Part shown: piece after piece, positions 19,318 through 38,058 of the stretch
Numbering within the stretch: position 1 is the stretch's first letter
Layout: each line of letters begins with the position of its first letter
Source: Eubacteriales bacterium
Lineage (GTDB): Bacteria > Bacillota > Clostridia > Oscillospirales > CAG-272
Assembly: GCA_045654845.1 (NCBI GenBank)
Contig: JAZOOB010000044.1
Location: 1 to 39,233 of the forward strand
Reading direction: 5' to 3'
DNA: 39,233 nt
Made by a program: the position numbers and the translations under genes
The notes under the pieces: generated by a model
What the model was told of the DNA's origin: nothing
Databases searched by the model: none
What the model saw: the letters and a program-made list of their open reading frames with translations, nothing else

Positions 19318-19489
19318 AATTTTTTCGTCACTTTTGACAACAGAAAACGAAAAAATCTGACTTTTGTTAGTACAGAATGACGATTTTTGAGAAAAAAACA
19401 AAAAAATAGAACAATAGTATTCGGTTTTGTGGTAGAATATACGCATAATAAATCCATTTAATTATAATAAGATGAAAGAGGATAGAATA

Positions 19490-20812
19490 ATGAGCGTTAA
19501 GGTTTTAAAATTCGGCGGAAGCTCTCTTGCAGACCCCGAGCATTTTAAAATGGTCTCTGACATAGTGAAGGCGGACCCCGAAAGAAGATACGTGGTCGCA
19601 TCCGCGCCCGGAAAATGTAAGTCGAGCAACAACAAGATTACCGACTTGCTTTACCGTTGCTACGAGCTCGCAGTAGAAGAGAAGGATATAAGCGAGGTGT
19701 TTGATGAAATCTGTGGCAGATACAGATACATCATTTCCGAGCTCAATATTGATATAAATTTAGACGAAACCTTTGAAAAGATAAGACTCGCTGTGCTTAA
19801 TAACTCAGGTCGCGACTACGTCGCATCGAGAGGTGAGTATCTTAACTCTAAGATACTTGCGGCATATCTTGGCTTTGATTTCATTGATGCGAAGAAGGTA
19901 ATTTTCTTCAAGGACGACGGCTCTTTTGACGCCGAGAGAACGAACACCGTTTTACACGACGTGCTTAATAAGCACTCTCACGCGGTAATCCCCGGATTCT
20001 ACGGCTCTATGCCTAACGGAACTATAAAGACCTTCTCAAGAGGTGGCTCGGATATTACGGGCTCTATCGTGGCAAGAGCGGCAAACGCGGCGCTTTACGA
20101 AAACTGGACCGACGTTTCGGGCTGTCTTATGGCAGACCCCCGCTGTGTAGAAAATCCGAAGCCTATCGACGTAATCACCTACAAGGAATTGCGCGAGCTT
20201 TCCTATATGGGTGCGACGGTGCTTCACGAGGACGCTATATTCCCCGTAAGATATTCAAAAATTCCGATAAACATAAGAAACACGAACAAGCCCGAGGATA
20301 AGGGTACGTTTATAGTAAATGCGACCGATACCGTAAGCGACTACGTTATTACGGGTATTGCCGGCAAGGTAGGCTTCTCTACCGTCAACATAGAAAAGGC
20401 TATGATGAACGGAGAGCTCGGCTTTGGCCGTCGCGTTTTGCAGGTAATCGAGGAATTGAAGATTTCCTACGAGCATTTCCCGTCTGGAGTCGACACTATG
20501 ACTCTCGTGCTTTCGACGAAGGATATAGAGCGCTCTCGCGCCGACATAATGGCAGGTATCTGTAAGGCGGTAAACCCCGACAACATTTTCGTCGAGGATA
20601 ATCTCGCGCTCGTCGCGGTCGTTGGACGCGGTATGGTAAAGACGAAGGGTACGGCTATGAGAGTATTCAAGGCTCTTTCCGAAGCAGATATCAATATCCG
20701 TATGATAGACCAGGGCTCGTCGGAGCTTAATATCATCGTCGGTGTCGACGAAAACGATTACATTCCCGCGCTCAACGCTATCTACAACGAGTTTGTAAAG
20801 AGTGGGAAATAA
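19490..20812 (+). CDS. lysC: Aspartate kinase
   Basis: VLKFGGSSL N-terminus, a kinase core (FSRGGSDITGS) and two C-terminal ACT-like repeats. I prefer the ATG at 19490 (AGAGGA upstream) over 19472. Confidence 0.88.
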   Translation: MSVKVLKFGGSSLADPEHFKMVSDIVKADPERRYVVASAPGKCKSSNNKITDLLYRCYELAVEEKDISEVFDEICGRYRYIISELNIDINLDETFEKIRLAVLNNSGRDYVASRGEYLNSKILAAYLGFDFIDAKKVIFFKDDGSFDAERTNTVLHDVLNKHSHAVIPGFYGSMPNGTIKTFSRGGSDITGSIVARAANAALYENWTDVSGCLMADPRCVENPKPIDVITYKELRELSYMGATVLHEDAIFPVRYSKIPINIRNTNKPEDKGTFIVNATDTVSDYVITGIAGKVGFSTVNIEKAMMNGELGFGRRVLQVIEELKISYEHFPSGVDTMTLVLSTKDIERSRADIMAGICKAVNPDNIFVEDNLALVAVVGRGMVKTKGTAMRVFKALSEADINIRMIDQGSSELNIIVGVDENDYIPALNAIYNEFVKSGK

Positions 20813-20885: not shown

Positions 20886-21119
20886 TATAAGAGATAGAGG
20901 CGCACTCTTGCGATGAGTACCGTATATAAAAGGCTGCCGAGGCTGTACGGGAAGGGCGCAAGTGCCGAAGTGGATGCGGTGGCTCGCATTTCGCTGGCAA
21001 TACAGAGAATATCTGTCTTGCTGTCGCAAAGTTTTTTTGCGGAGTGCTATCCTTTGCATTACCGTTCATATTTCTTTATTATGGACTTTTGCGAGGTAGC
21101 GACGCTGCCTCGCTTTTTC
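20886..21119 (+). promoter_or_regulatory. Lysine riboswitch (L-box) with terminator expression platform
   Basis: ATAGAGGCGC...GAGTA...GGGAAGGGCGCAAGTGCCGAAG...CTGG...GCTGTC parallels the B. subtilis lysC leader core (GATAGAGGTGC...AGAGTA...GCCGAAG...GCTGG...GCTGTC). The terminator GCGAGG-N11-CCTCGC plus T5 lies at 21091-21118, just before dapA. Confidence 0.85.
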
Positions 21120-21145: not shown

Positions 21146-22036
21146 ATGAAGAACACAGTGTTTACAGGAGTTGCGACAGCAATAGTTACCCCCCTGACCG
21201 AGAAGGGAATTGATTACGGAAAATTCGCAGAGCTCATTGAATGGCAGATTTCTGAGGGTGTCGACGCAATAGTTGCGGTAGGTACGACAGGAGAGGGCTC
21301 TACCTTGACAGACGAGGAGCACAAGGAGGCTATCCGCTTCTGCGTAGAAAAGGTGGCAGGCAGAGTTCCCGTCATAGCAGGCACAGGCTCAAACGATACA
21401 GCCTATGCAATAGATCTGACAAAATACGCGTGCGAGGTAGGGGCAGACGCTATGCTTTTGGTCACCCCCTATTATAACAAGGCGACACAGAAGGGACTTG
21501 TAGCTTCATTCCGTGCGATAGCAGACGCATCGACTAAGCCCTGTATTCTTTATAACGTGCCCTCAAGAACGGGCTGTAACCTTTTGCCCTCTACCGTGCT
21601 TGAGCTCGCCGACCACGAGAATATCGTAGCTATAAAGGAAGCCTGCGGAAATATATCGCAGATAGCAGAGCTCTCTCGCCTTGTGGGTGATAAGCTTGAT
21701 ATATATTCGGGTAACGACGACCAGATAGTGCCCATCCTCTCTCTTGGTGGCTCGGGTGTAATCTCTGTGCTTTCAAACGTATTGCCGAAGGAGACGAAGG
21801 CTATCTGCGACAAGTTCTTTGCAGGCGACGTAAAAGGCTCTTGCGCTTTACAGCTTGAGCTTCTTCCCTTAATTGACGCGCTTTTCTGCGAGGTCAACCC
21901 CATTCCCGTAAAGTGCGCTGTTTCTCATATGGGATTTGGCGAGAATTATTTGAGACTCCCCCTCACACCTATGGAGGCAGAAAACGAGAAGAAGCTTGTC
22001 GCTCTTATGCAAAAAGCAGGCGTAAAGCTCGTGTAA
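21146..22036 (+). CDS. dapA: 4-hydroxy-tetrahydrodipicolinate synthase
   Basis: GVATAIVTP, VAVGTTGEGSTLT, YNVPSRTG and a KEA active-site lysine context. Confidence 0.9.
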   Translation: MKNTVFTGVATAIVTPLTEKGIDYGKFAELIEWQISEGVDAIVAVGTTGEGSTLTDEEHKEAIRFCVEKVAGRVPVIAGTGSNDTAYAIDLTKYACEVGADAMLLVTPYYNKATQKGLVASFRAIADASTKPCILYNVPSRTGCNLLPSTVLELADHENIVAIKEACGNISQIAELSRLVGDKLDIYSGNDDQIVPILSLGGSGVISVLSNVLPKETKAICDKFFAGDVKGSCALQLELLPLIDALFCEVNPIPVKCAVSHMGFGENYLRLPLTPMEAENEKKLVALMQKAGVKLV

Positions 22037-25234: not shown

Positions 25235-26080
25235 ATGAAAACAGTAATAGGAATTGACGTAGGCGGAACTACTACGAAGATAGTCGGATTTCGCTACGAC
25301 GACAAAAAGAAACCTATACTTGTAGAGCCTCAGTTCGTACGCGCGACAGATCCCGTCACCTCAGCGTACGGTGCATTCGGACGCTTCACTATGGAAAACG
25401 ATATAAAGCTCGAAAAGATAGACAGAGCTATGATAACGGGCGCAGGCGCGTCTGCCATAGAGAAGCCTATTTATTCGGTAGAGCATGAGAAGGTGAGCGA
25501 ATTCGACTGTATAGGCAGAGGAGGACTTTACCTTTCGGGACTCGACCGCGCTATCGTCGTCAGTATGGGCACGGGTACGGCTATCGTCTATGCGGAAAAG
25601 CGCGAATCCGACATAAAAACCGAGTACCTCGGCGGTACGGGTGTCGGAGGCGGCACTATGATAGGCCTTACGAGAAAAATACTCGGTGTCGATAACGTAG
25701 AGCATATCGAGCAGCTTTCACGCGAAGGAAATCTCGATAACGTAGACTTAAGAATTAAAGATATAGCAGGCAAGCAGTACGGTGATATGGACGCGACTCT
25801 CACCGCGTCGAATTTCGGAAAGCTTTCCGACCTCGCATCGAAAAACGATATCGCGCTCGGCGTCGTAAATATGGTAGCTGAGACTGTCGGTATGATGGCT
25901 ATATTCGCGGCGCGTGGCTTCGACGTTACCGACATAGTTCTTACGGGAAATCTCACCACCATCAGCGCGGTAAGAGAGAGAATTCTCAGCATGAACGACA
26001 GCTTTGACGTGAACTTTATCATTCCCGAAAAGGCACAGTACGCGACGGTAATAGGCGCAGGCCTTAACGGACTTAAATAA
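25235..26080 (+). CDS. coaW: Type II pantothenate kinase (CoaW-like, ASKHA fold)
   Basis: IGIDVGGTTTKIV, GGTGVGGGTMIGL, TLTASNFG and a YATVIGAG tail align by eye with S. aureus CoaW (GIDAGGTLIKIV, GGIGTGGGMIQGL, DLTAANFG, FSGAIGA). Confidence 0.65.
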   Translation: MKTVIGIDVGGTTTKIVGFRYDDKKKPILVEPQFVRATDPVTSAYGAFGRFTMENDIKLEKIDRAMITGAGASAIEKPIYSVEHEKVSEFDCIGRGGLYLSGLDRAIVVSMGTGTAIVYAEKRESDIKTEYLGGTGVGGGTMIGLTRKILGVDNVEHIEQLSREGNLDNVDLRIKDIAGKQYGDMDATLTASNFGKLSDLASKNDIALGVVNMVAETVGMMAIFAARGFDVTDIVLTGNLTTISAVRERILSMNDSFDVNFIIPEKAQYATVIGAGLNGLK

Positions 26081-26123
26081 TTACGTTGTAAATAAAAGTT
26101 AACATATAAAAGAGGAAAAAGAA

Positions 26124-27404
26124 ATGAGCAATTCAAGAGATACGATATGCGTACAGGGTGGCTACCGCCCCGAAAACGGTGAGCCCCGTCAGATTCCGAT
26201 AATTCAGAGCACTACCTTCCGCTATGAAACGAGTGAGGATATGGGAAAGCTCTTCGACCTTGAGGCGAGCGGATACTTCTATTCCCGTCTGCAGAATCCC
26301 ACCTGCGATACAGTCGCTAAAAAGATAGCGTTACTTGAGGGCGGCTCTGCTGCGATGCTTACCTCGTCGGGACAGGCGGCGAACTTCTACGCGGTGTTTA
26401 ATATAGCGACAAACGGCGACCACGTCGTAGCAAGCTCTGCTCTTTACGGCGGAACCTATAACCTTTTTGCCGTAACTATGAAGAAGATGGGCGTTGAATT
26501 TACCTTCATTTCCCCCGATTGCAGCGAAGAGGAGCTTGCCGATGCATTCCGTCCTAACACCAAGGCGGTATTTGGCGAGACCATTTCAAACCCCTCGCTC
26601 GACGTTCTCGACATAGAGAAATTCGCAAAGGCGGCGCACGCACACGGCGTACCGCTTATTATAGACAATACCTTCGCTACACCTATATTCTGCCGTCCTA
26701 TCGAATTCGGTGCAGATATAGTAACCCATTCGACCACTAAATATATGGACGGTCACGGCGCTTGCGTCGGTGGCTGTATCGTAGATTCGGGCAAGTTCGA
26801 CTGGATGGCAAACAAGGAGCGTTTCCCCGGTCTTACCACCCCCGACGATAGCTATCACGGCATAGTTTATGCCGAGAAGTTCGGTCTTGAGGGCGCGTTT
26901 ATTACGAAGGCGACGGCTCAGCTTATGAGAGATTTCGGCTCTTCGCCCTCACCTATGAGCGCATTCATTCTCAACTTGGGACTTGAGAGCCTTCACGTAA
27001 GAATGAAAAAGCATTCCGATAACGCTTTGGCGATAGCACAGTTCCTCTCTAATCACCCGAAGGTAAAATGGGTAAGATACCCCCGTCTTGAAGGTGACAA
27101 GGGCTACGAGCTTTCAAAGAAGTATATGCCCGAGGGCTCCTGCGGTGTTATAAGCTTCGCATTGGAGGGAGGAAGAGAGGCTGCCGAAAAGGTAATGAAG
27201 AGCCTTAAAATCGCGGCTATCGAAACCCACGTGGCAGACGCGCGTAGTTGCTGCCTGCACCCTGCAAACGCGACCCACAGACAGATGAACGACGAGGAAT
27301 TGGTAGCGGCGGGAATCACCCCCGACCTTATCCGTTATTCCTGCGGTCTTGAATCAGCCGAGGACTTGATTGCAGACCTTAGCGCAGCAATTGCGACGAT
27401 ATAA
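26124..27404 (+). CDS. metY: O-acetylhomoserine aminocarboxypropyltransferase (sulfhydrylase), PLP-dependent
   Basis: Cys/Met-metabolism PLP family: YSRLQNPT, HSTTKYMDGHG (PLP lysine) and RYSCGLE. Confidence 0.85.
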   Translation: MSNSRDTICVQGGYRPENGEPRQIPIIQSTTFRYETSEDMGKLFDLEASGYFYSRLQNPTCDTVAKKIALLEGGSAAMLTSSGQAANFYAVFNIATNGDHVVASSALYGGTYNLFAVTMKKMGVEFTFISPDCSEEELADAFRPNTKAVFGETISNPSLDVLDIEKFAKAAHAHGVPLIIDNTFATPIFCRPIEFGADIVTHSTTKYMDGHGACVGGCIVDSGKFDWMANKERFPGLTTPDDSYHGIVYAEKFGLEGAFITKATAQLMRDFGSSPSPMSAFILNLGLESLHVRMKKHSDNALAIAQFLSNHPKVKWVRYPRLEGDKGYELSKKYMPEGSCGVISFALEGGREAAEKVMKSLKIAAIETHVADARSCCLHPANATHRQMNDEELVAAGITPDLIRYSCGLESAEDLIADLSAAIATI

Positions 27405-27432
27405 GTAATAAAACCCGAGAAAAGAGATAATT

Positions 27433-28362
27433 ATGCCTATTAAGATACCAAACGACCTGCCCGCAGTCAAGATACTCGAGTCGGAAAACATATTCGTGAT
27501 GACCGAGCGACGCGCAATATCGCAGGATATTCGTCCTCTGAGGATTTTACTTTTAAATCTTATGCCGACGAAAATAGATACCGAAACGCAGTTTAGTAGA
27601 TTGCTCGGAAACACCCCCTTGCAGATAGAGCTCACTCTTATGCATACGGCGACTCACAAGGCGAAAAACACGTCAGAGGAGCATCTTTTAAACTTTTATT
27701 GCGAGTTTGAGAGCATAAAGGACGAGTATTTCGACGGTCTCGTAATTACGGGCGCGCCGGTTGAAAAGATGGCGTTTGAGGACGTTCAATATTGGGACGA
27801 GCTTTGCGAGATTCTTGAATGGAGTAAGACTCACGTTTTCAGCACCCTTTCGGTCTGCTGGGGCGCGCAGGCGAGCTTCTATTATTTCTATGGAATAGAC
27901 AAGCACCCGTTAGACGAAAAGCTTTTCGGTGTGTTTGAGCATAAGGTGGAGCACGCCGAGTCGAGACTTTTCCGCGGCTTTGACGATACCTTTATGGCAC
28001 CTCACTCAAGACATACCTACGTAAAGCGTGAAGATATAGAAGCATGTCCTAAGCTTCGAGTGCTTTCTTCGTCTGACGAAGCGGGCGTTTTCGTTATCGA
28101 GGACGAAAAGCACCGTCGCGTGTTCATCACAGGACACCCCGAATACGATGAAAGAACGCTTGAAAAGGAATATTTAAGAGATAAGAATTTAGGTCTTCCT
28201 ATCGCACCGCCGAAGAATTATTATCCTGGCGACGACGATACGAAGAAGCCTAACGTGAGCTGGAAGGCGCACGCGAATCTTTTGTATTCAAACTGGCTGA
28301 ACTACTACGTATATCAGACGACCCCGTACGATATAAAGGAAATAGTCAGCGAAGAGGAGTAA
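27433..28362 (+). CDS. metA: Homoserine O-acyltransferase (MetA family)
   Basis: [12 protein letters not shown]-terminus, LNLMP, ITGAP, VCWGAQ (active-site Cys) and GHPEYD. Confidence 0.88.
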
Positions 28363-28428: not shown

Positions 28429-28457
28429 TTGACAAAATTGAAATACTGTGGTATACT
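28429..28457 (+). promoter_or_regulatory. Sigma-A promoter (extended -10) for T-box leader 1
   Basis: TTGACA, 17-bp spacer ending in TGTGG, TATACT. Confidence 0.7.
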
Positions 28458-28505
28458 ACCCACTGTAATTGTGGAAGTAGTTTATTTTCCATAAAACTCA
28501 ATAAA

Positions 28506-28757
28506 GGCTATGATAAAGACGGTGACCCTTACAGTGCGGCACAGAGAAACGGCGGTTGGTGAAAGCCGTAGCGCAAGAGGAGTTTACCTATCACTTTTGA
28601 GCCGGGAGCCCGAAAAATGCAGTAAGGCTTCACGAGAAGCGCAGCGTCAGTGCGTAGGAGTTGTTGGTCTCCGTGAGTGGCGACAAGGTCGCAATTTGAG
28701 TGGTACCGCGAGTGTATTTTCACCCGTCTCAAAGAATTTACTTTGAGGCGGTTTTTT
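28506..28757 (+). promoter_or_regulatory. T-box riboswitch leader 1; specifier read as AUC (Ile)
   Basis: Stem I K-turn halves GGC-UAU-GA (28506-28513) and GA-GCC (28599-28603). AGAGA bulge at 28543-28547. Distal loop GGUUGGUGAAAG. Specifier AUC at 28590-28592 followed by A. T-box sequence AATTTGAGTGGTACCGCG at 28693-28710. Terminator CCGTCTCAAAG-aattta-CTTTGAGGCGG plus T6 at 28724-28757, whose 5' arm can alternatively pair with the T-box TTTGAG. Confidence 0.88.
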
Positions 28758-28814
28758 ATTTGACCTGCTTCAAGGACAGTTGGATACCGAAAAACGGCAA
28801 AACAGGAGGTTACT

Positions 28815-31079
28815 ATGTCAAAAGAAACGAAGAATAAGCTTTTAGAGGTCGCGCAGCGTATAAAGGAAATGCGAGAGATAGACGGCATTTCCGTCGAAGA
28901 AATGGCGCGCAAGACCGAGGTTAAATTAGAAGAATATTTAGAGTATGAGGCAGCAAAAAAGGATTTCCCCTTTACCTTTATACATAAATGTGCGCTTGCG
29001 TTCGGTATAGGAATTACCGACCTTCTCGAAGGACAGAGTGCATCGCTTTCCTCTTATACCGTAACGCGCAAGGGCGACGGTCAGCAGACAGCGAAGGAGG
29101 ACGGCATCGAGATAACGAACTTAGCGCCCCTTTTCAGAAAGAAGATAGCAGAGCCCTATTGGGTAAAATATGAATATGACGAGAAGCTTCAAGACCAGCC
29201 TATAACCCTTGCTACCCACTCGGGACAGGAGTTTGACCTTATAATGAAGGGACGCTTAAAGGTGCAGATAGGCGACCACGTGGAATATCTTGAAGAGGGC
29301 GACAGTATCTACTATAACAGTGCGACGCCTCACGGAATGGTAGCCGTTGGCGGTGAGGACTGTCTTTTCGTCGCAGTCGTCTTGCCGGGAGATTCTACCT
29401 CGGAAACAGTGACGAGAGCCACACTTTCTAAAAACACCGAAAAGACCGAGCTTGTAAGCTCGAGCTTTATAAAGACCGAAGAGGACGAAAACGGAACTCT
29501 TACGAAAATAGATTTCGAAAATGAGGATAATTTCAACTTTGCATTCGACATAGTCGACGAGATAGCGAAGAAGAATCCCTCGAAGCTCGCTATGCTTCAC
29601 ATCGATAAAAACGGAGTAGAGCGTCGCTTCACCTTCCGCGATATGAAGCGCGCGTCTAATATGACGGCAAACTATTTTAAATCGCTCGGCATTAAGAAGG
29701 GCGACAAGGTAATGCTCGTTTTAAAGCGTCATTACCAGTTCTGGTTTGCGATCCTCGGACTTCACAAGCTCGGCGCCGTCGCTATCCCTGCGACCAATCT
29801 TTTGCAGGAGCACGACTTCGACTATCGCTTCAAGGCGGGTGAGGTCAGCGCTATCGTATGTACAGCAGACGGAGACGTCGCGCGTCAGGTAGAGCTCGCA
29901 GAAAAGAACGGACACACCTTAAAGCATAAGATACTTGTCGGTGGCAAGAGAGAGGGCTGGCACGATTATAACGAGGAATACTCTATGTATAGTGCCCACT
30001 TCTACCGAGACGAGAACACCGCTTGCGGAAACGATCCCTTGCTTATGTTCTTTACGTCGGGCACGACGGGTTATCCAAAGATAGCCGTACACAATCACAA
30101 ATATCCCTTGGGACATTACATAACCGCGAAATATTGGCACGGAGTACATGAAAACGGACTTCATTTCACGATTTCCGAGACCGGCTGGGGTAAAGCCCTT
30201 TGGGGTAAGCTCTACGGACAGTGGCTCTGCGAGGGTGCGGTGTTCACCTACGACTTCGACCGCTTTAACGCAGCGGAGATACTTCCGATGTTCGCAAAGT
30301 ATAATATAACTACCTTCTGCGCACCCCCCACTATGCTCAGAATGCTCGTAAAAGAGGACATCTCGCAGTACGACCTTTCCTCTATCAAGCATATGACCAC
30401 GGCAGGCGAGGCGCTTAATCCCGAGGTATTCCGTCAATTCCAGCAGACGACAGGTCTTTCTATTATGGAGGGCTTCGGACAGACCGAAATGACGCTTGCT
30501 ATCGCAAACCTTATGGGTAGCACCTGTAAGCTCGGCTCTATGGGTAAGGCAGTACCGCTTTACGACATAAAGCTTCTCGACCCCGACGGAAACGAGGTCG
30601 CCCCCGGACAGACGGGAGAAATCGTTATAAGAACCGACGAAAAGATACCCTGCGGACTTTTCTCCGGCTATTACGGAGACAAGGCGAAGACCGACGAGGC
30701 TTGGTACGACGGATATTACCATACCGGTGATACCGCTTGGCGCGACGAGGACGGCTTCTTCTTCTATGTAGGTCGTGCAGACGACGTAATCAAGTCGTCG
30801 GGCTACCGTATCGGTCCGTTTGAAATAGAGAGTGTAATTATGGAGCTTCCTTACGTGCTTGAATGTGGAGTTTCCGCTGCACCCGACGAGGTAAGAGGTC
30901 AGGTGGTAAAGGCGAGCGTCGTGCTCGTCAAGGGCGTAGAGCCGACAGAAGAGCTTAAAAAGGATATTCAGAATTACGTCAAGGAGCATACTGCCCCCTA
31001 TAAGTATCCGAGAATAGTCGAGTTCCGAACCGAGCTTCCCAAGACTATAAGCGGAAAGATACAAAGAAACAAGCTCTGA
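28815..31079 (+). CDS. Fusion protein: N-terminal XRE HTH + cupin, C-terminal AMP-forming (medium/short-chain) acyl-CoA ligase; 754 aa
   Basis: HTH (LLEVAQRIKEMREIDGISVEEMARKT). Cupin (THSGQEFDLIMKGRLKVQIGDHVEYLEEGDSIYYNSATPHG). Adenylate-forming motifs FFTSGTTGYPK, YHTGDTAWRDEDGFFFYVGRADDVIKSSGYRIGPFEIE and PKTISGKIQR. RBS AGGAGG. Confidence 0.85.
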   Translation: MSKETKNKLLEVAQRIKEMREIDGISVEEMARKTEVKLEEYLEYEAAKKDFPFTFIHKCALAFGIGITDLLEGQSASLSSYTVTRKGDGQQTAKEDGIEITNLAPLFRKKIAEPYWVKYEYDEKLQDQPITLATHSGQEFDLIMKGRLKVQIGDHVEYLEEGDSIYYNSATPHGMVAVGGEDCLFVAVVLPGDSTSETVTRATLSKNTEKTELVSSSFIKTEEDENGTLTKIDFENEDNFNFAFDIVDEIAKKNPSKLAMLHIDKNGVERRFTFRDMKRASNMTANYFKSLGIKKGDKVMLVLKRHYQFWFAILGLHKLGAVAIPATNLLQEHDFDYRFKAGEVSAIVCTADGDVARQVELAEKNGHTLKHKILVGGKREGWHDYNEEYSMYSAHFYRDENTACGNDPLLMFFTSGTTGYPKIAVHNHKYPLGHYITAKYWHGVHENGLHFTISETGWGKALWGKLYGQWLCEGAVFTYDFDRFNAAEILPMFAKYNITTFCAPPTMLRMLVKEDISQYDLSSIKHMTTAGEALNPEVFRQFQQTTGLSIMEGFGQTEMTLAIANLMGSTCKLGSMGKAVPLYDIKLLDPDGNEVAPGQTGEIVIRTDEKIPCGLFSGYYGDKAKTDEAWYDGYYHTGDTAWRDEDGFFFYVGRADDVIKSSGYRIGPFEIESVIMELPYVLECGVSAAPDEVRGQVVKASVVLVKGVEPTEELKKDIQNYVKEHTAPYKYPRIVEFRTELPKTISGKIQRNKL

Positions 31080-31123
31080 TAAAAGGGAAAAGCATAAATT
31101 TTCGCTTTTTTGACAAAAAGATA

Positions 31124-31152
31124 TTGACAAATGCTTTGAGAAATGATAAAAT
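31124..31152 (+). promoter_or_regulatory. Sigma-A promoter for T-box leader 2
   Basis: TTGACA, 17-bp spacer, TAAAAT. Confidence 0.6.
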
Positions 31153-31163
31153 AACCGCATAAA

Positions 31164-31421
31164 AGCTTTGACGAAGAGGACGAAGGCTTGCGTTTTTGCA
31201 GAGAGACGGGATTGCTGTGAACCGTTAAAACAGAACCTTACGTTGTAACTTCCGAGCTGAGAGGAAGAAAGAGAAATTGAGTAGACCCTCTCCGAAAAAC
31301 GTAGCGTTAGTACGGAAAAGGTTGATAGACCTTGAGTGGCGACGGAGTCGCAATTTGAGTGGTACCGCGGGTTAGTTTTTACGGCTCGTCTCAAAGTATT
31401 ATCTTTGGGACGAGCTTTTTT
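31164..31421 (+). promoter_or_regulatory. T-box riboswitch leader 2; specifier read as GUA (Val)
   Basis: K-turn halves AGC-UUU-GA (31164-31171) and GA-GCU (31254-31258). AGAGAG bulge at about 31199-31204. Specifier GUA at 31245-31247 followed by A. F-box-like GCGTTAGTA. T-box AATTTGAGTGGTACCGCG at 31352-31369. Terminator GCTCGTCTCAAAG-tattat-CTTTGGGACGAGC plus T6 at 31384-31421. Confidence 0.88.
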
Positions 31422-31443
31422 GTCCTAAAAAGGAGAAAACGAA

Positions 31444-33729
31444 ATGGAAAAAATAACTGCTCTTGATCTTAAAATTCAAGAGATGGCTAATCGAATAAAG
31501 GAGCTTCGCGAGATTCAGGGACTCAGTGTTTCTGAAATGGCTATTAAAACGAACGTGTCTGAGGTCGAGTACCTTGCCTGTGAAAACGGACAGTCCGACT
31601 TAAACTTCGCGTTCATTTATCGCTGCGCGCAGGCTTTTGGCGTCGACGTCACCGATATTATCGAGGGTAAGAGCCCGACGCTTAAATCCTACACGCTCAC
31701 AAGAGCAGGTGCAGGACAGAGAATAGAGGAAGCGCACGGAATGACCTATTTCAACCTTGCACCTTCCTTTAAAAACAGAATTGCAGAGCCTCTTTTTGTA
31801 CGCAGCAGATACAATCCCGACTCTCAGAACAAGGATATTGAGCTGACCACACACGTAGGTCAGGAGTGCGATATCGTAGTAGAGGGAAGACTGAAGGTAC
31901 AGATAGGCGAGCATCAGGAGATACTCGGCCCCGGCGATAGCATTTACTACGACTCTTCGACGCCTCACGGTATGATAGCCGTAGACGGACAGGACTGTGC
32001 ATTCTACGCCTTCGTGCTTAACCCCACAGGCGAGGACGTCCCCGAATTTACTCATCAGAAGAGAACGGTCGTTATAAAGGCGAAAAAGGACGAGGGCGAA
32101 AGAGTATATAAGCGCTTTATCGAAACCGAGGAAAACGAAAACGGAACGCCTACCTCGATAAAGTTCAAGAATATAGACAAATTCAATTTTGCATACGATA
32201 TATTAGACGAGATAGCGAAAAAAGACCCCGACAAGCTTGCGCTTTTACATATATCAAACGATAAAAAGGAAAGTCGCTTCAGCTTTTCGGATATTAAAAA
32301 GTATTCCTGCCGCGCGGCGAACTATTTCCGTTCACTCGGTATCAAGCGCGGAGACAAGGTAATGCTCGTTTTGGGCAGACACTATCAGTTCTGGTTTGCT
32401 ATGCTCGGTCTTAACAGAATAGGCGCGATAGGAATTCCCGCGATGAATCAGTTGCTCGATCACGACTTCGAGTACCGCTTCAACAAGGCGGGTGTAAGCG
32501 CAATTATATGTACAGCGAAGGGCGCTGTCACCGAGCAGGTAGACATTGCGGCGAAGAAATGCCCGCAGCTTTTACATAAGATAATAGTTGGTGGCGAGCG
32601 CGAGGGCTGGCGCAACTTTGACGAGGAATGCGCACTCTTCAGTACTCACTTTGAAAGAACAGAGAATACGGCAGGCGGAGACGACACGATGCTGATGTTC
32701 TTCACCTCGGGTACGACGGGTTATCCCAAGATAGCCGCACACAATTACAAATATGCACTCGGACACTTCCATACAGCGAAGTATTGGCATAACGTAGATC
32801 CCGACGGACTTCACTTCACGATTTCCGACACAGGCTGGGCGAAGGCTATGTGGGGTAAATTCTACGGTCAGTGGCTCTGCGAGAGTGCGACGTTCGTATA
32901 CGACTTTGACCGCTTTAACGCGAGCGACATTCTTCCTATGTTCGCAAAATATAATATAACGACCTTCTGCGCGCCCCCCACGATGCTCAGAATGCTTATA
33001 AAAGAGGATATTTCGAAATACGACCTTTCCTCTGTCAAGCATATGACGACAGCGGGCGAAGCGCTCAACCCCGAGGTCTACCGTCAGTTCGAGCAGGCGA
33101 CGGGCTTGCAGATACTCGAGGGCTTCGGACAGTCGGAAAGCACGATGATGATAGGAAATATGACGGGCGCGCCGCATAAGATCGGCTCTATGGGTAAGCC
33201 TGCACCTATCTATGATATTGAGCTTATTGATCCCGAAGGAAATCCCGTTCCCGTCGGTGAAACGGGTGAAATCGTCGTAAATATTAAAGAAGGCTCGCCT
33301 TGTGGCTTGTTTACCGAATATTATGGCGATCCCGATAAGACGCTGGAGGCGCGACACGACGGATATTACCACACAGGCGATACCGCTTGGCGCGATGAGG
33401 ACGGATTCTTCTGGTACGTAGGTAGAGTGGTCGACGTAATCAAGTCGTCGGGCTACCGCATAGGTCCTTTTGAAATAGAGAGCGTAATTATGGAGCTTCC
33501 TTACGTACTCGAGTGTGGAGTTTCTGCCGCACCCGACGAGGTAAGAGGTCAGGTCGTAAAGGCGAGTATCGTGCTTGTAAACGGTACAGAGCCGACAGAG
33601 GAGCTGAAAAAGGAAATTCAGGAATACGTAAAGACGCACACCGCGCCCTATAAGTATCCGAGAATAGTAATCTTCCGTGACTCGCTTCCCAAGACCGCGA
33701 GTGGAAAGATACAGCGCAATCTCTTGTAA
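31444..33729 (+). CDS. Paralogous fusion protein: XRE HTH + cupin + AMP-forming acyl-CoA ligase; 761 aa
   Basis: Same architecture as 28815..31079. Long identical peptide runs (MFFTSGTTGYPKIA, MFAKYNITTFCAPPTMLRML, VIKSSGYRIGPFEIESVIMELPYVLECGVSAAPDEVRGQVVKAS). RBS AGGAG. Confidence 0.85.
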   Translation: MEKITALDLKIQEMANRIKELREIQGLSVSEMAIKTNVSEVEYLACENGQSDLNFAFIYRCAQAFGVDVTDIIEGKSPTLKSYTLTRAGAGQRIEEAHGMTYFNLAPSFKNRIAEPLFVRSRYNPDSQNKDIELTTHVGQECDIVVEGRLKVQIGEHQEILGPGDSIYYDSSTPHGMIAVDGQDCAFYAFVLNPTGEDVPEFTHQKRTVVIKAKKDEGERVYKRFIETEENENGTPTSIKFKNIDKFNFAYDILDEIAKKDPDKLALLHISNDKKESRFSFSDIKKYSCRAANYFRSLGIKRGDKVMLVLGRHYQFWFAMLGLNRIGAIGIPAMNQLLDHDFEYRFNKAGVSAIICTAKGAVTEQVDIAAKKCPQLLHKIIVGGEREGWRNFDEECALFSTHFERTENTAGGDDTMLMFFTSGTTGYPKIAAHNYKYALGHFHTAKYWHNVDPDGLHFTISDTGWAKAMWGKFYGQWLCESATFVYDFDRFNASDILPMFAKYNITTFCAPPTMLRMLIKEDISKYDLSSVKHMTTAGEALNPEVYRQFEQATGLQILEGFGQSESTMMIGNMTGAPHKIGSMGKPAPIYDIELIDPEGNPVPVGETGEIVVNIKEGSPCGLFTEYYGDPDKTLEARHDGYYHTGDTAWRDEDGFFWYVGRVVDVIKSSGYRIGPFEIESVIMELPYVLECGVSAAPDEVRGQVVKASIVLVNGTEPTEELKKEIQEYVKTHTAPYKYPRIVIFRDSLPKTASGKIQRNLL

Positions 33730-33738
33730 GGATAAAAA

Positions 33739-34395
33739 ATGAAGGATAAAAGAATTACCATACTGTCGGGACATTACGGCAGTGGAAAAACGAATATAGC
33801 GGTAAATATCGCACTCGACCTGAAAAAAAGGCACGAGAAGGTGGCGGTCGCCGACATAGATATAGTAAATCCCTATTTCAGAACCAAGGATAGCGAGGAG
33901 CTTTTTAAAAGAGAGGGAATAAGGCTTATCTGCTCGGAATACGCAAACACAAACGTCGATATTCCCGCACTACCGCAAGAAATGTACGCGGTGACAGACG
34001 ACAAGTCGCTTTATGCAGTGCTTGACGTAGGAGGAGATGAACGAGGCGCTCTCGCGCTCGGACGAATTTCCCCCGCTATCGCAAAGGAAGACGACTACGA
34101 GATGATATACGTGGTGAACTTCTACCGCCCGTTGACACAGGACGTAGACAGCGCTATCGAGGTCATGCGCGAAATAGAATACGCTTGTAAACTAAAGTTT
34201 ACTTCGATAATCAACAACTCAAATCTGGGGGCAGAGACCGATTCGGAGGATATTATAAAATCTCTTTCGAAGGCAGAAGCGCTTTCAGAAAAAACGGGAC
34301 TTCCGCTTCTTTATACGACGGTGAAGAAAATGACACCCGAGCTTGAAGGCAGAGAAGAGGATTTTCGAGCTATTTCATTACAGAAACATATGTAA
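33739..34395 (+). CDS. Uncharacterised P-loop NTPase (SIMIBI/G3E-like), 218 aa
   Basis: Walker A GHYGSGKT, a Walker-B/switch-like VLDVGGDERG, and IINNSNLG where G3E GTPases carry NKxD. The start lies 9 nt after the stop of the upstream ligase. Confidence 0.6.
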   Translation: MKDKRITILSGHYGSGKTNIAVNIALDLKKRHEKVAVADIDIVNPYFRTKDSEELFKREGIRLICSEYANTNVDIPALPQEMYAVTDDKSLYAVLDVGGDERGALALGRISPAIAKEDDYEMIYVVNFYRPLTQDVDSAIEVMREIEYACKLKFTSIINNSNLGAETDSEDIIKSLSKAEALSEKTGLPLLYTTVKKMTPELEGREEDFRAISLQKHM

Positions 34396-34407
34396 AGGAG
34401 ATATAAA

Positions 34408-34614
34408 ATGGCAAAGCTTACGTTTAAAACCGACAAGTGCAAGGGCTGCGGTCTTTGTGTCGGAGTTTGTCCTAAGGGCGTCCTTGCTATTGCAGAGGAC
34501 AAAATCAATGCGAAGGGGCATCACCCCGTCGTAGCAGTAAAAGAAGAGGCGTGCATAGGCTGTGCATTCTGCGCTACTATGTGTCCTGACTGTATTATCA
34601 AGGTAGAGAGGTGA
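34408..34614 (+). CDS. 2x[4Fe-4S] ferredoxin-type delta subunit of 2-oxoacid:ferredoxin oxidoreductase
   Basis: 68 aa with two CxxCxxCxxxCP motifs (CKGCGLCVGVCP, CIGCAFCATMCP). Confidence 0.85.
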   Translation: MAKLTFKTDKCKGCGLCVGVCPKGVLAIAEDKINAKGHHPVVAVKEEACIGCAFCATMCPDCIIKVER

Positions 34615-34620
34615 GAAAAG

Positions 34621-35685
34621 ATGGCAGATAAGGTTTTAATGAAGGGTAACGAAGCGATAGCAGAGGCTGCTATAATCGCAGGTTGCCGTCACTATTTCGG
34701 ATATCCTATTACACCCCAGACGGAAATTGCCGCTTATATGGCGAAGAGAATGCCTAAAATCGGTGGTATATTCCTTCAGGCAGAGAGCGAAGTAGCCGCT
34801 ATAAATATGGTTTACGGTGTTTCGGCTACCGGTAAGAGAGTTATGACCTCTTCGTCGAGCCCCGGAATTTCGCTTAAGGGAGAGGGTATTTCCTATCTCG
34901 CAGGCGCAGACCTTCCCGCACTTATAGTAAACGTACAGCGCGGAGGCCCCGGTCTTGGCGGTATTCAGCCTTCCCAGTCCGACTATTTCCAGGCGACCAA
35001 GGGTGGTGCGCACGGTGACTTCCATATGATAGTTCTTGCACCTGCATCGGTACAGGAAATGGCGGAGCTTACCGTACACGGCTTCGACCTTGCAGATAAG
35101 TATCGCGTCACCTCTATGATTTTGGCAGACGGTACTATGGGTCAGATGATGGAGCCTGTTTCTCTTGATTTCAAGACGGCAGAGCCTGTCGAAAAGCCTT
35201 GGGCGACCACGGGTACTAATATGCAGAGAAAGCATAACGTAGTAAACTCGCTCTTCTTAAAGCCCGAGCAGCTTGAACAGACGAACTTCGAGCGTTACGA
35301 GAGATATGAGCAGATAAAGAAGAACGAGGCTATGTACGAGGAATATATGATGGACGACGCGGAAATCTGCGTTGTAGCCTTCGGTATTGCAGCCCGCGTT
35401 TCCAAGAATGCGATAAATGAGGCAAGAGCGAAGGGAATCAAGGTAGGACTTATCAGACCTATCACTCTCTGGCCCTTCCCCGAAAAGCCTTTTGAAGAGG
35501 CAGCAAAGAAGGTTAAATCCTTCATTTCCGTAGAGCTTTCTATGGGACAGATGATAGAAGACGTTCGTCTTGCAACGAAGGATGCAAAGCCGGTTACCCT
35601 TTGTAACCGTTCAGGCGGTATGATACCCTCACCCGAGCAGGTACTCGCCGCAATAGAAGAAGCAAACGAAAAGGAGGGCAAATAA
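34621..35685 (+). CDS. 2-oxoacid:ferredoxin oxidoreductase, alpha-type subunit (VorB/KorA-like)
   Basis: [32 protein letters not shown]-terminus typical of the OFOR alpha subunit; 354 aa. Confidence 0.85.
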
Positions 35686-35686
35686 G

Positions 35687-36433
35687 ATGAGTGTAGTATT
35701 TGACAAGCCTCATTCCTTGGCAGATCTTCCTCTGCACTACTGCCCCGGCTGTACTCACGGTATCGTTCACCGTCTTGTAGCCGAGGTTATCGACGAGCTT
35801 GGCATCGAGGGAAAGACCATAGGTATCGCCCCCGTTGGATGCTCGGTTATGGCATACGTTTACTTTAACTGCGATATGATAGAAGCGGCTCACGGACGTG
35901 CGCCTGCTGTTGCGGCGGGTGTTAAGCGCTCATTGCCCGACAGCGTAGTATTTACCTATCAGGGCGACGGCGACCTCGCATCTATCGGTATGGCAGAGAC
36001 CGTACACAGTGCGGCAAGAAACGAAAATATCACCGTTATCTTTATAAACAATGCAATTTACGGTATGACGGGCGGACAGATGGCACCTACCTCGCTTCCC
36101 GGTCAGGTCACCCAGACCTCTCCCTACGGACGTGACGTAAACCACTGCGGTTTTCCTATCAAGGTCTGCGAGATGCTCTCTCAGCTTGACGGTCCCGAAT
36201 ATCTTGAGCGTGTAGCCGTAAACAACGTAAAGAACGTAAAGAACGCGAAAAAGGCGATAAAGAAAGCGTTTGAAAATCAGGTAAACGGAAAGGGCTTCTC
36301 ACTCGTTGAGGTTATTTCCTCTTGTCCTACCAACTGGGGTATGACACCGCAAAAGGCGCTTGAATGGATCGACGAAAAAATGATTCCTTATTATCCTCTC
36401 GGTGTATATAAGGATAGAAGCGAAAATAAGTGA
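35687..36433 (+). CDS. 2-oxoacid:ferredoxin oxidoreductase, TPP-binding beta subunit
   Basis: HYCPGCTHG cluster ligands and the TPP motif [14 protein letters not shown]...[11 protein letters not shown]. Confidence 0.85.
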
Positions 36434-36447
36434 GAGGAGAAGAAAAG

Positions 36448-36984
36448 ATGAGTACAGTACAGTATCTTATAGCAGGCTTTGGCGGACAGGGTATTCTGTT
36501 TGCAGGTAAGTTCCTTGCATATAAAGGCTTGAATATGGACAAAAACGTAAGCTGGCTTCCTTCCTACGGCCCCGAAATGCGTGGCGGTACGGCGAGCTGC
36601 AGCGTTATTCTCGGCGACGAGCCCGTAGGCTCGCCCATCGTATCGAAGCCCGACGTTTTGATAGCGATGAACCTTCCTTCTCTCGACAAATACGAGGATA
36701 CGGTAGCAGAAGGCGGCACTATCTACGTAGACTCTACCCTTATCGAGCGTAAGGTAAAGAGAACCGACGTAAAGGTACACTATATCCCTGCGACCAAGAT
36801 TGCAGACGATAACAAAACACCTACCCTTGCCAATATGGTAATTATGGGTAAGGTGCTCGCAGAAAACGGTGAGTTCGACGACGAAGAGGCAGTTCTTGCC
36901 GCGCTTAAGAAGGTAATTTCCGCGAAGCGTGCAGATATGCTCGACGTGAACCTCGGCGCACTCCGTCTTGGAAAGAATTATTAA
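36448..36984 (+). CDS. 2-oxoacid:ferredoxin oxidoreductase, gamma subunit
   Basis: [14 protein letters not shown] and YGPEMRGG motifs. I prefer the ATG at 36448 (GAGGAG upstream) to the GTG at 36430. Confidence 0.85.
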
Positions 36985-36996
36985 GAGGTGGATAAA

Positions 36997-38058
36997 ATGG
37001 AAATTAAAATCACAAAGAATTTAAATCCCGGTGTAAAGCCCGAATCCTCTAAGCTCGGCTTCGGTAAGTATTTCACCGACCATATGTTCATTATGGACTA
37101 CACAGAGGGAAAAGGCTGGCACGACGCGAGAATCGTACCCTTTGGCCCCCTTCAGATTCACCCTGCCTGCACCGCGCTTCACTACGGCGCAGAGATATTT
37201 GAGGGACTCAAGGCATATAGAAGAAAAGACGGAAAGGTTCAGCTTTTCCGCCCCATTGAGAACATTCGCAGAATGAACCGTTCGGCAGAGCGTCTTTGCC
37301 TGCCCACCATTCCCGAGGACCTCGCTATGCAGGTTCTCACCGAGTTCGTTGCATTCGAGCAGGAATGGACCCCCAGTGAAGAGGGAACCTCTCTTTACAT
37401 TCGTCCCTTTATGTTCGGTAATGATGAAACTCTCGGTGTGCATTCCGTAAAGCACGCAAGCTACGTAATCATAACCTCCCCCGTTGGAAGCTACTATGCA
37501 GAGGGCATCAACCCCGTAAAGATTATGATAGAAGCAGACGACGTAAGAGCAGTACGCGGCGGTACGGGTGAAGCTAAGTGTGGCGGTAACTATGCGGCAA
37601 GTACACGCGCAGGTCAGAAGGCAGAACAGCAGGGCTACGCTCAGGTTCTCTGGCTCGATGGCGTAGAGCGCAAGTATATCGAAGAAGTAGGCGCTATGAA
37701 CGTAATGTTCAAGATTGACGGCGAGGTCGTAACTCCCGCGCTCACAGGCTCAATTCTTCCCGGTATTACGAGAAAATCCTGTGTAGAGCTTCTTACAAAG
37801 GAAGGCTACAAGGTAAGCGAGAGAAGACTCAGCATCGACGAGCTTGAAAAGGCACTCGAGGACGGCAAGCTTGAAGAGGCTTGGGGCTGCGGAACTGCGG
37901 CAGTTATTTCCCCTATCGGCACTCTTTCCTATAAGGGCAAGGTGTACGAGGTAAACGGCGGCAAGATAGGCGAGGTAACTCAGCACCTTTACGATACCCT
38001 CACCGGCATTCAGTGGGGTAAGATCGAAGATAAGTTCTCTTGGACCGTTCTTCTTTAA
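36997..38058 (+). CDS. ilvE: Branched-chain amino acid aminotransferase
   Basis: Fold-type IV PLP enzyme: FGKYFTDHMF, HYGAEIFEGLKAYR, GTGEAKCGGNYAAS and GILPGITR. I prefer the ATG at 36997 (AGAGGTGG upstream) to the GTG at 36988. Confidence 0.88.
   Translation: MEIKITKNLNPGVKPESSKLGFGKYFTDHMFIMDYTEGKGWHDARIVPFGPLQIHPACTALHYGAEIFEGLKAYRRKDGKVQLFRPIENIRRMNRSAERLCLPTIPEDLAMQVLTEFVAFEQEWTPSEEGTSLYIRPFMFGNDETLGVHSVKHASYVIITSPVGSYYAEGINPVKIMIEADDVRAVRGGTGEAKCGGNYAASTRAGQKAEQQGYAQVLWLDGVERKYIEEVGAMNVMFKIDGEVVTPALTGSILPGITRKSCVELLTKEGYKVSERRLSIDELEKALEDGKLEEAWGCGTAAVISPIGTLSYKGKVYEVNGGKIGEVTQHLYDTLTGIQWGKIEDKFSWTVLL

Follow-up and report, generated by a model that had tools for sequence, protein, structure and literature searches.

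Sequence comparisons trace the HTH-cupin module of presumed branched-acid CoA ligases in gut and rumen Clostridia to a conserved two-gene cassette

The contig JAZOOB010000044.1 of an Eubacteriales bacterium (assembly GCA_045654845.1), analysed at its full length of 39,233 nucleotides (nt) and referred to here as the window, carries two consecutive genes, A and B, each of which encodes an XRE-type helix-turn-helix (HTH) domain and a cupin domain at the N-terminus of an acyl-coenzyme A (CoA) ligase. Sequence comparison established that this HTH-cupin module and its ligase correspond to a two-gene cassette conserved across phyla. The same comparison established that, in the lineage of the window, the gene pair was fused via a disordered linker of about 18 residues and then duplicated into paralogs behind an Ile T-box and a Val T-box. 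What is new here is the recognition of the fusion as that of a conserved gene pair, and as one that is common in databases, yet for which no published description was found. With slightly less than even confidence, we propose that the module serves the ligase as a dedicated sensor or regulatory partner and acts on it by ligand- or metal-dependent gating or by control of assembly. The two genes and their parts are as follows, with the evidence in brackets.

28815..31079, + strand: gene A, XRE-HTH + cupin + Macs-type acyl-CoA ligase, 754 residues (open reading frame (ORF), Pfam, NCBIfam, PDB 3etc)
28821..29030, + strand: XRE-type HTH domain of A, residues 3-72 (Pfam HTH_19, AlphaFold2 helices)
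29082..29384, + strand: cupin beta-barrel of A, residues 90-190 (Cupin_2, AlphaFold2 strands, invariant columns, HppE alignment)
29385..29438, + strand: fusion linker of A, residues 191-208, poorly conserved and predicted to be disordered (model confidence, conservation)
29439..31079, + strand: ligase core of A, residues 209-754 (Pfam, sequence, 55% identity to a separate Anaerotruncus ligase)
31444..33729, + strand: gene B, XRE-HTH + cupin + ligase, 761 residues (ORF, Pfam, 66% identity to A)
31444-32043, + strand: N-terminal module of gene B

The ORFs of A and B are each a single unbroken frame containing all four domains (XRE-HTH, cupin, AMP-binding and AMP-binding_C), and good ribosome-binding sites precede both. 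The proteins are 66% identical over their whole length, and the initial annotation, made from the letters of the sequence and its ORFs, was right to describe an HTH-cupin unit in frame with a full ligase in both paralogs. A Pfam search of protein A identified HTH_19 at residues 14-73 (28.8 bits, slightly short of the cut-off of 30.2), Cupin_2 at residues 133-188 (41 bits against a cut-off of 27.2), AMP-binding at residues 248-620 (E 3e-64) and AMP-binding_C at residues 670-748 (E 4e-20). In protein B, HTH_19 (32.6 bits), HTH_3 (25.6 bits) and Cupin_2 (42.1 bits) each exceeded the respective cut-off, and the ligase domains were also present. Profile searches thus recovered the four annotated domains in both proteins, the HTH of A being the only one slightly below its cut-off.

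An AlphaFold2 model of residues 1-200 of A was built from 107 family sequences. The model (predicted local distance difference test (pLDDT) 88.8, predicted template modelling score (pTM) 0.76) contained five helices (residues 3-23, 27-33, 38-45, 53-63 and 67-72, with 38-45 as the predicted recognition helix), followed by a beta-barrel. A Foldseek search with the N-terminal module returned the XRE-cupin protein 1y9q as the top PDB match (E 2e-13; template modelling (TM) score 0.65/0.72; root-mean-square deviation (rmsd) 3.9 Å; 190 columns), with HppE, Psf4, HEPD and MPnS as second-tier matches. At the sequence level, a PDB search with the module alone gave a best E of 0.3, and a family profile was required to reach HppE. 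Pfam, AlphaFold2 and Foldseek therefore agreed with the initial view of the N-terminus as a complete XRE-HTH and cupin unit of the free-standing regulator type. The module extends to about residue 190 and is followed by the linker of about 18 residues and by the native ligase N-terminus from about residue 209. In a full-length AlphaFold2 model of A, pLDDT fell below 50 at residues 194-209, and the interdomain region, residues 191-235, showed the lowest conservation in the protein (majority-residue frequency 0.53).

Residues 1-200 of A were searched exhaustively against 1.84 billion cluster representatives. The search gave 1,984 matches at E <= 0.001, 509 at E <= 1e-10 and 79 at E <= 1e-30, which included fused proteins of 758-768 residues and many free-standing proteins of 182-195 residues, with 33-47% identity. 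Fused and free-standing modules shared the invariant residues R15, R20, Y41, E45, G73, G89, H135, E139, G146, D163 and H173. A profile of the free-standing proteins retrieved 5,581 clusters, those of cultured Anaerotruncus, Ligaoa and Acetanaerobacterium included. In all four lineages inspected, one of them Bacteroidota, the free-standing gene was followed on the same strand by a gene for an AMP-binding ligase of 550-552 residues, with a spacing from a 1-nt overlap to a 19-nt gap. A wider context sample of 88 loci provided 40 informative free-standing genes and another 27 loci with the fused form. A ligase with 45-64% identity to the core of A was encoded directly downstream of the free-standing HTH-cupin gene in 37 of the 40 cases; these ligases are orthologous to that core, and the fusion therefore joins a pre-existing conserved pair. 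The initial annotation had correctly placed the fusion behind T-boxes; it had missed that the genes of free-standing relatives are nearly always followed immediately by that of an orthologous ligase. T-boxes also precede many split cassettes of Bacillota, with an AUC (Ile) specifier in 10/10 Infernal alignments shown. Free-standing HTH-cupin genes without a ligase downstream were seen at loci L109, L111 and L128, and odd fusions occurred among the module representatives, for example P0223 with a cytidylate-kinase-like N-terminus.

The pair from Anaerotruncus was compared with protein A. Its small protein was 52% identical to residues 6-190 of A, and its ligase was 55% identical to residues 218-754, with ligase residue 10 aligned to residue 218 of A; the two halves have diverged from A about equally. 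The layout of A is what the loss of a stop codon in such a closely spaced gene pair would yield. In a neighbour-joining tree of the modules, calculated without support values, one large fused clade contained both A-type and B-type modules, and other fused lineages (L113/L114, P0171 and P0240) fell among the split ones, which suggests several independent fusion events.

The spread of the fusion was examined in a sample with one genome per species, of which the best 80 loci together with the window were used for gene counts. At least 595 stretches in the species-representative genomes encoded a relative, nearly all of them from gut or rumen Clostridia. The best 80 loci and the window contained 131 module-bearing genes, of which 116 were complete; 114 of the complete genes encoded 750-799 residues, and the remaining 2 were short and resembled frameshifted copies in draft metagenome-assembled genomes (MAGs). 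With full-length A as the query, more than 100 clusters of 754-755 residues were retrieved, with 78-85% identity and all four Pfam domains, some from contigs of up to 2.5 Mb; the protein of the window itself was not on record in the public assemblies consulted. A search with the N-terminal 247 residues returned 708 proteins, the best 120 of which were all contig-truncated pieces of the same fusion, from MAGs of Clostridia, Lachnospiraceae, Oscillospiraceae and Acutalibacteraceae.

An assembly join or a frameshift at the junction, a concern raised for positions 29400-29500, was ruled out by the 114 of 116 complete genes that were unbroken and by the more than 100 full-length clusters. The orthologues in independent genomes were of similar length, and this uniformity across 80 species genomes and the window excludes a sequencing or assembly join. 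A separate ligase translated from an internal start was also ruled out, residues 200-260 of A containing no Met. Copies that were interrupted or split into several tblastn pieces were found at L017 (B copy), L047 (A copy) and L041 (B copy); these are likely frameshifts or pseudogenes in draft MAGs. Near-typical cassettes of fused ligase and Vor were seen at L059, L073 and L055 in MAGs labelled Sphaerochaetaceae, Coriobacteriaceae and Solobacterium, by horizontal transfer or binning contamination. Two antisense ORFs opposite the ligase genes, 29919-31394 (- strand, 491 residues) and 32572-33834 (- strand, 420 residues), were taken as by-products of coding-strand composition.

Databases name the fused proteins merely "AMP-binding protein" or "acyl-CoA synthetase". 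A literature search for the fusion, the two-gene cassette or a T-box-controlled branched-acid ligase found no description, and no characterised ligase with an HTH-cupin module turned up, as the initial annotation had anticipated. The fusion is nevertheless not rare: it is among the commonest forms of this ligase in gut and rumen Clostridia.

The two genes have their own promoters and T-box leaders and precede a set of metabolic genes, as follows.

28429..28457, + strand: sigma-70-type promoter of A, TTGACA 28429-28434, 17-nt spacer, TATACT 28452-28457 (read from sequence)
28501..28760, + strand: T-box leader of A with AUC (Ile) specifier and terminator (Rfam RF00230, 85.6 bits, E 2e-18, model 1-219)
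31124..31152, + strand: sigma-70-type promoter of B, TTGACA 31124-31129, 17-nt spacer, TAAAAT 31147-31152 (read from sequence)
31159..31422, + strand: T-box leader of B with GUA (Val) specifier and terminator (Rfam RF00230, 83.3 bits, E 7e-18)
33739..38058, + strand: ParA/MinD-like nucleoside triphosphatase (NTPase), 2x[4Fe-4S] ferredoxin, 2-oxoacid:ferredoxin oxidoreductase alpha/beta/gamma, class IV (branched-chain) aminotransferase (Pfam)

The position of the ligase genes downstream of T-boxes, as first annotated, was borne out by the RF00230 matches (E ~1e-18). Both matches cover the full model and are slightly short of the Rfam gathering score of 93; related leaders score 83-111 bits, and the terminators of both leaders are visible in the sequence. 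The specifiers of A and B were read from covariance-model alignments. Orthologous leaders, called by a heuristic, carried GTA in 36 of 37 unambiguous B-type cases and ATC in 32 A-type cases, the other calls being scattered single codons that were taken as miscalls. TTGACAA was the top conserved word at the matching position in orthologous loci. The downstream genes begin 10 nt past the end of gene B, and the gene order NTPase-ferredoxin-oxidoreductase-aminotransferase is kept in most of the best 80 loci, some of which have a single fused ligase ahead of the same operon.

The ligase core of A (residues ~236-752) matched PDB 3etc at E 2e-185. This entry is the Methanosarcina acetivorans enzyme MacsMa, which prefers 2-methylbutyrate as its substrate (PMC10455477), and MbcS of Staphylococcus aureus activates branched-chain acids (PMC10026030). 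MbcS was the best NCBIfam model for A and B, with 438 and 430 bits, about half of the equivalog cut-off of 850, and by these scores the two ligases are related to MbcS but not equivalogs of it. The motifs of the adenylate-forming core, read from the translation, are intact in A: FTSGTTGYPK, GFGQTE, YHTGD, GRADDVIKSSGYRIG and SGKIQR, the A10 lysine included. From the homology to MacsMa, the Ile and Val specifiers and the Vor/IlvE synteny, A is presumed to be a 2-methylbutyrate-CoA ligase (Ile-type) and B an isobutyrate-CoA ligase (Val-type). Between 72 A-type and 42 B-type orthologues, the only ligase positions that were conserved but different were G459A (TGW[G/A]KA, after the Trp) and G474A, encoded in gene A at nt ~30189-30191 and ~30234-30236. 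The smaller residue stands in the paralog expected to take the larger acid. Residues 459 and 474 are candidate determinants of the preference for 2-methylbutyrate or isobutyrate, G459A being compatible with different pocket sizes. The pathway would lead from 2-methylbutyrate or isobutyrate to the acyl-CoA, by reductive carboxylation to the 2-oxoacid and on to Ile or Val. Reductive carboxylation of branched acids to Ile and Val is established biochemistry of rumen anaerobes.

In the cupin, H135, E139 and H173 were invariant across the 107 sequences of the family, and the surrounding G-Q-E and P-H-G motifs were also conserved. The family profile aligned HppE over the full N-terminal module (E 4e-7, 18-20% identity), and the H-x3-E (H-A-G-N-E) and P-H motifs of HppE fell on H135, E139 and H173; the aligned HppE residues are its Fe(II) ligands. 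The cupin thus has the pattern of a 2-His-1-carboxylate-type metal site, and metal binding is predicted. The identity between A and B from the same genome was 0.48 in the HTH, 0.60 in the cupin, 0.68 in the ligase N-domain and 0.90 in the ligase C-domain, confirming that the N-terminal modules diverge more between the paralogs than the ligase cores. The accompanying idea that this divergence fits different ligand specificities fared less well. Comparison of 72 Ile-type with 42 Val-type orthologues identified 0 class-specific conserved positions among the 75 of the cupin, 6 in the HTH and 6 in the HTH-cupin linker, and 44% of the cupin positions were conserved in both classes. Paralog-specific ligands are consequently unsupported, and the cupin pattern is in keeping with a ligand, metal or protein contact that both paralogs share.

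Operators were sought in 115 orthologous promoter segments upstream of the T-boxes by dyad and word counts. No shared dyad was found in them except a TTTTT/AAAAA tract adjoining the -35 box, and the only recurrent words were TTGACAA (the -35 box), the 5' end of the T-box and this tract. The tract matches the UP-element consensus and fits an UP element. In addition, promoter-anchored segments were compared with 100 dinucleotide shuffles per sequence. Inverted repeats were not in excess over the shuffles, the fraction with p <= 0.1 being 0.06 in A-type segments (n=66), 0.00 in B-type segments (n=47) and 0.04 in split T-box cassettes (n=23). Inverted repeats that bracket the -35 and -10 boxes in split cassettes, namely GGAACC-N11-GGTTTC (L081), GGAAAG-N11-CTTTCC (L087) and GGTTC-N2-GAACC (L083), had been noticed by eye and, given the negative shuffle test, are at chance level. 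TTCC-N13-GGAA in B-type promoter segments was rejected as an operator, as it is part of the conserved coding sequence at the end of gene A (LPKTISGK). In a T-box-free split cassette of Prolixibacteraceae (L085/L086), the AT-rich sequence ACTTTT-T-AAAAGT forms a perfect palindrome ~10 nt ahead of the start of the HTH-cupin gene.

The predicted recognition helix, taken as about residues 36-47, had the lowest conservation in the module (majority-residue frequency 0.61-0.73) and bears conserved acidic residues (S-x-E-E/D-Y-x-x-x-E-x-G). It is closer to the helix of HppE (T-P-E-T-V-A-A-W-E-N-G) than to those of the DNA binders 1y9q (S-K-A-M-L-G-Q-I-E-R-G) and 9k3w (S-R-Q-T-I-N-A-L-E-T-G). Among orthologues, the majority-residue frequency was 0.71-0.79 in the HTH, 0.78-0.80 in the cupin and 0.79-0.82 in the ligase N-domain; judged by these values, the module is under purifying selection. 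The alpha-domain of HppE, as Higgins et al. reportedly found in 2005, does not bind DNA, so the HTH-cupin architecture alone is no proof of a transcription factor. With no shared dyad in 115 promoters and no enrichment of inverted repeats over shuffles, the option of a DNA-binding autoregulator, one of three that the initial annotation had offered beside a ligand-sensing domain that has lost DNA binding and a trigger enzyme, is without support at the genes' own promoters but stays conceivable. The three options remain the right set of hypotheses, and the evidence tilts towards the non-DNA-binding one.

We therefore outline how the module could act on the ligase. The T-boxes would set transcription by tRNA charging, and the HTH-cupin module would act on the ligase enzyme itself and not on its own promoter. 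The His/Glu/His site of the cupin would bind a signal common to both paralogs, either a metal or a metabolite shared by the two routes, and the bound signal would gate the activity or the oligomeric state of the ligase. The HTH would persist for its structural role or its protein contacts, as it does in HTH-cupin enzymes of the HppE type. More generally, it is possible, and we put it forward tentatively, that the XRE-HTH/cupin unit, rather than being a transcription factor, binds a metal or metabolite and serves an adenylate-forming enzyme as its regulatory subunit, whether its gene is separate and coupled or fused. Several points weigh against the proposed action on the ligase. Characterised XRE-cupin proteins (ErfA, PsdR, PauR) act locally as DNA-binding repressors of the enzyme genes beside them; their dimers bind palindromes, conserved regulator/target pairing is their hallmark, and ErfA was modelled on 1Y9Q, which is also the best structural match of the N-terminal module (PMC7901475). 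The HTH fold is retained and conserved, which calls for an explanation. The operator searches covered the genes' own promoters, arms of 5-6 nt are indistinguishable from chance, and operators could change along with the variable helix or be located at other genomic sites. The full-length AlphaFold2 model of A, only moderate in confidence (pLDDT 73, pTM 0.59), with its disordered linker and a shallow alignment in the C-terminal half, showed no docking of the module on the ligase and does not discriminate between the explanations.

A trigger enzyme or one-component repressor, with an HTH that binds DNA either at the gene's own promoter or far from it, for instance at transporter or de novo ilv genes, is the main rival; it is in our judgement unlikely, though it deserves serious consideration, since the precedent within the XRE-cupin family is strong and the operator tests are not decisive. 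The cupin ligand or the catalytic state of the ligase would release the DNA, which would add an input of substrate availability to the amino-acid-demand input of the T-box; BirA, PutA and NadR work as such trigger enzymes. The architecture and the top structural match are those of XRE-cupin regulators, and the free-standing relatives are annotated in databases as XRE-family regulators with a cupin sensor, whereas the HTH of A is under the Pfam cut-offs. The split HTH-cupin/ligase cassette fits the regulator/target pattern, in that characterised XRE-cupin members repress adjacent enzyme genes in conserved pairs (PMC7901475); on the other side, neither a dyad common to the 115 orthologous promoters nor an enrichment of inverted repeats over shuffles was found, in fused or split cassettes. 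Purifying selection acts on the HTH of the fused proteins, but the recognition helix is acidic and less conserved than any other part of the module. Finally, the acyl-CoA ligase FadD1 has been reported as a DNA-binding regulator (PMC12754631), but in this family T-boxes already control transcription, being present upstream of 118 of 127 fused genes and of many split cassettes, and in gene B the T-box begins only ~6 nt after the -10 box.

Two further explanations were considered. According to one, which we consider improbable, the module is mainly structural: a dimerising cupin would set the oligomeric state or stability of the ligase without sensing a ligand, and the HTH would be a conserved scaffold. 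Such a role agrees with the high conservation of the cupin and its identity in class between the paralogs, with the dimeric function of XRE-cupin proteins (PMC7901475) and with the failure to find an operator at the genes' own promoters. The family-wide invariant His/Glu/His site and the G-Q-E and P-H-G motifs, however, point to a binding site beyond a mere interface, and the related ligases MacsMa and MbcS function without such a module. The other explanation, a catalytic metal centre in the cupin as in HppE, Psf4 and HEPD, would involve a step on the acid, the acyl-adenylate or the acyl-CoA, such as isomerisation or proofreading hydrolysis, and appears very doubtful. The alignment of HppE over the full module (E 4e-7), with its ligand motifs on H135, E139 and H173, and the second-tier matches to HppE, Psf4, HEPD and MPnS speak for it, but the domain arrangement is unlike that of HppE (TM ~0.46 and rmsd ~13 Å, against 0.65-0.72 and 3.9 Å for 1y9q). 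XRE-cupin regulators such as PuuR also retain a His/Glu/His pattern. A cupin identical in class in both paralogs would fit shared chemistry; the ligase-Vor-IlvE route, however, is complete with no missing step, and oxygen or peroxide chemistry would be unlikely in hosts that are strict gut anaerobes.

The neighbourhood of the two genes has some further features. The oxidoreductase and aminotransferase genes downstream of B lie behind the Val T-box and its terminator, and gene A has its own Ile T-box; under starvation for Ile only, it would seem that the downstream enzymes, which both routes share, could be made only by read-through of the Val T-box. In the loci with a single fused ligase, one leader, with a specifier that is presumably Ile, stands ahead of the entire operon. 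Between the ligase and the ferredoxin/Vor genes, most related loci encode, as the window does at 33739-34395, a ParA/MinD/NUBPL-like P-loop NTPase of 218 residues, which may act in Fe-S or metal maturation of the oxidoreductase. Upstream of A, at 25235-28362, there are genes for a Fumble/BadF-type ATPase (pantothenate-kinase-like), an O-acetylhomoserine sulfhydrylase-like pyridoxal-phosphate enzyme and a homoserine O-acyltransferase, and locus L041 likewise has the sulfhydrylase-like and homoserine O-acyltransferase genes ahead of its fused ligase. A lysine riboswitch (20887-21057, 100 bits) is located upstream of a DHDPS (dapA-like) gene (21146-22036) and is immediately preceded by an aspartokinase-like gene with ACT domains (19472-20812).

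Many gut and rumen Clostridia require branched short-chain acids, which the ligase-oxidoreductase-aminotransferase route recycles to isoleucine and valine. Since the ligase is the ATP-consuming entry step, the HTH-cupin module is probably the main post-transcriptional control point of this route. The module occurs in thousands of protein clusters, and no published description of it was found. Should it turn out not to bind DNA, thousands of proteins now listed as "XRE family regulators" would be mis-annotated, the module would represent a new mode of post-translational control for acyl-CoA ligases, and a very large regulator family would have a second, non-DNA-binding career. Should it bind DNA, the fused proteins would be abundant new trigger enzymes in which a single gene is under both T-box (riboswitch-like) and protein-based control. 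The role of the module is directly testable with the split pairs of cultured Anaerotruncus, Ligaoa and Acetanaerobacterium.

Four groups of known proteins can be compared with those of the window. The XRE-cupin transcription factors (ErfA, PsdR, PauR, PuuR) have the same two-domain layout and a size of ~185-195 residues, and they are likewise encoded beside an enzyme gene as a conserved local unit. The module of the window differs from them in being covalently fused to its partner enzyme, or translationally coupled to it in the split form, and in standing behind a T-box; no palindromic operator was detected at its own promoters, its recognition helix is acidic and variable, and its DNA binding is hypothetical. 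BirA, PutA, NadR and FadD1 likewise combine a metabolic enzyme with an HTH-type domain or a regulator role in one polypeptide, and BirA also forms an adenylate. These four proteins are without a cupin sensing domain, whereas the window proteins have a cupin and no operator found at their own promoters; BirA, PutA and NadR have demonstrated operators. MacsMa and S. aureus MbcS have the same type of ligase core as A and B and are without the HTH-cupin module, as judged by chain lengths and matched ranges, and none is mentioned in PMC13584741. The context of the window ligases is amino-acid synthesis, unlike fatty-acid priming. HppE, Psf4 and HEPD likewise consist of an XRE-like alpha-domain and a cupin with an aligned H-x3-E...H site, and this type differs from the window module in its domain arrangement (rmsd ~13 Å), in its place in phosphonate biosynthesis and in its oxygen or peroxide chemistry.

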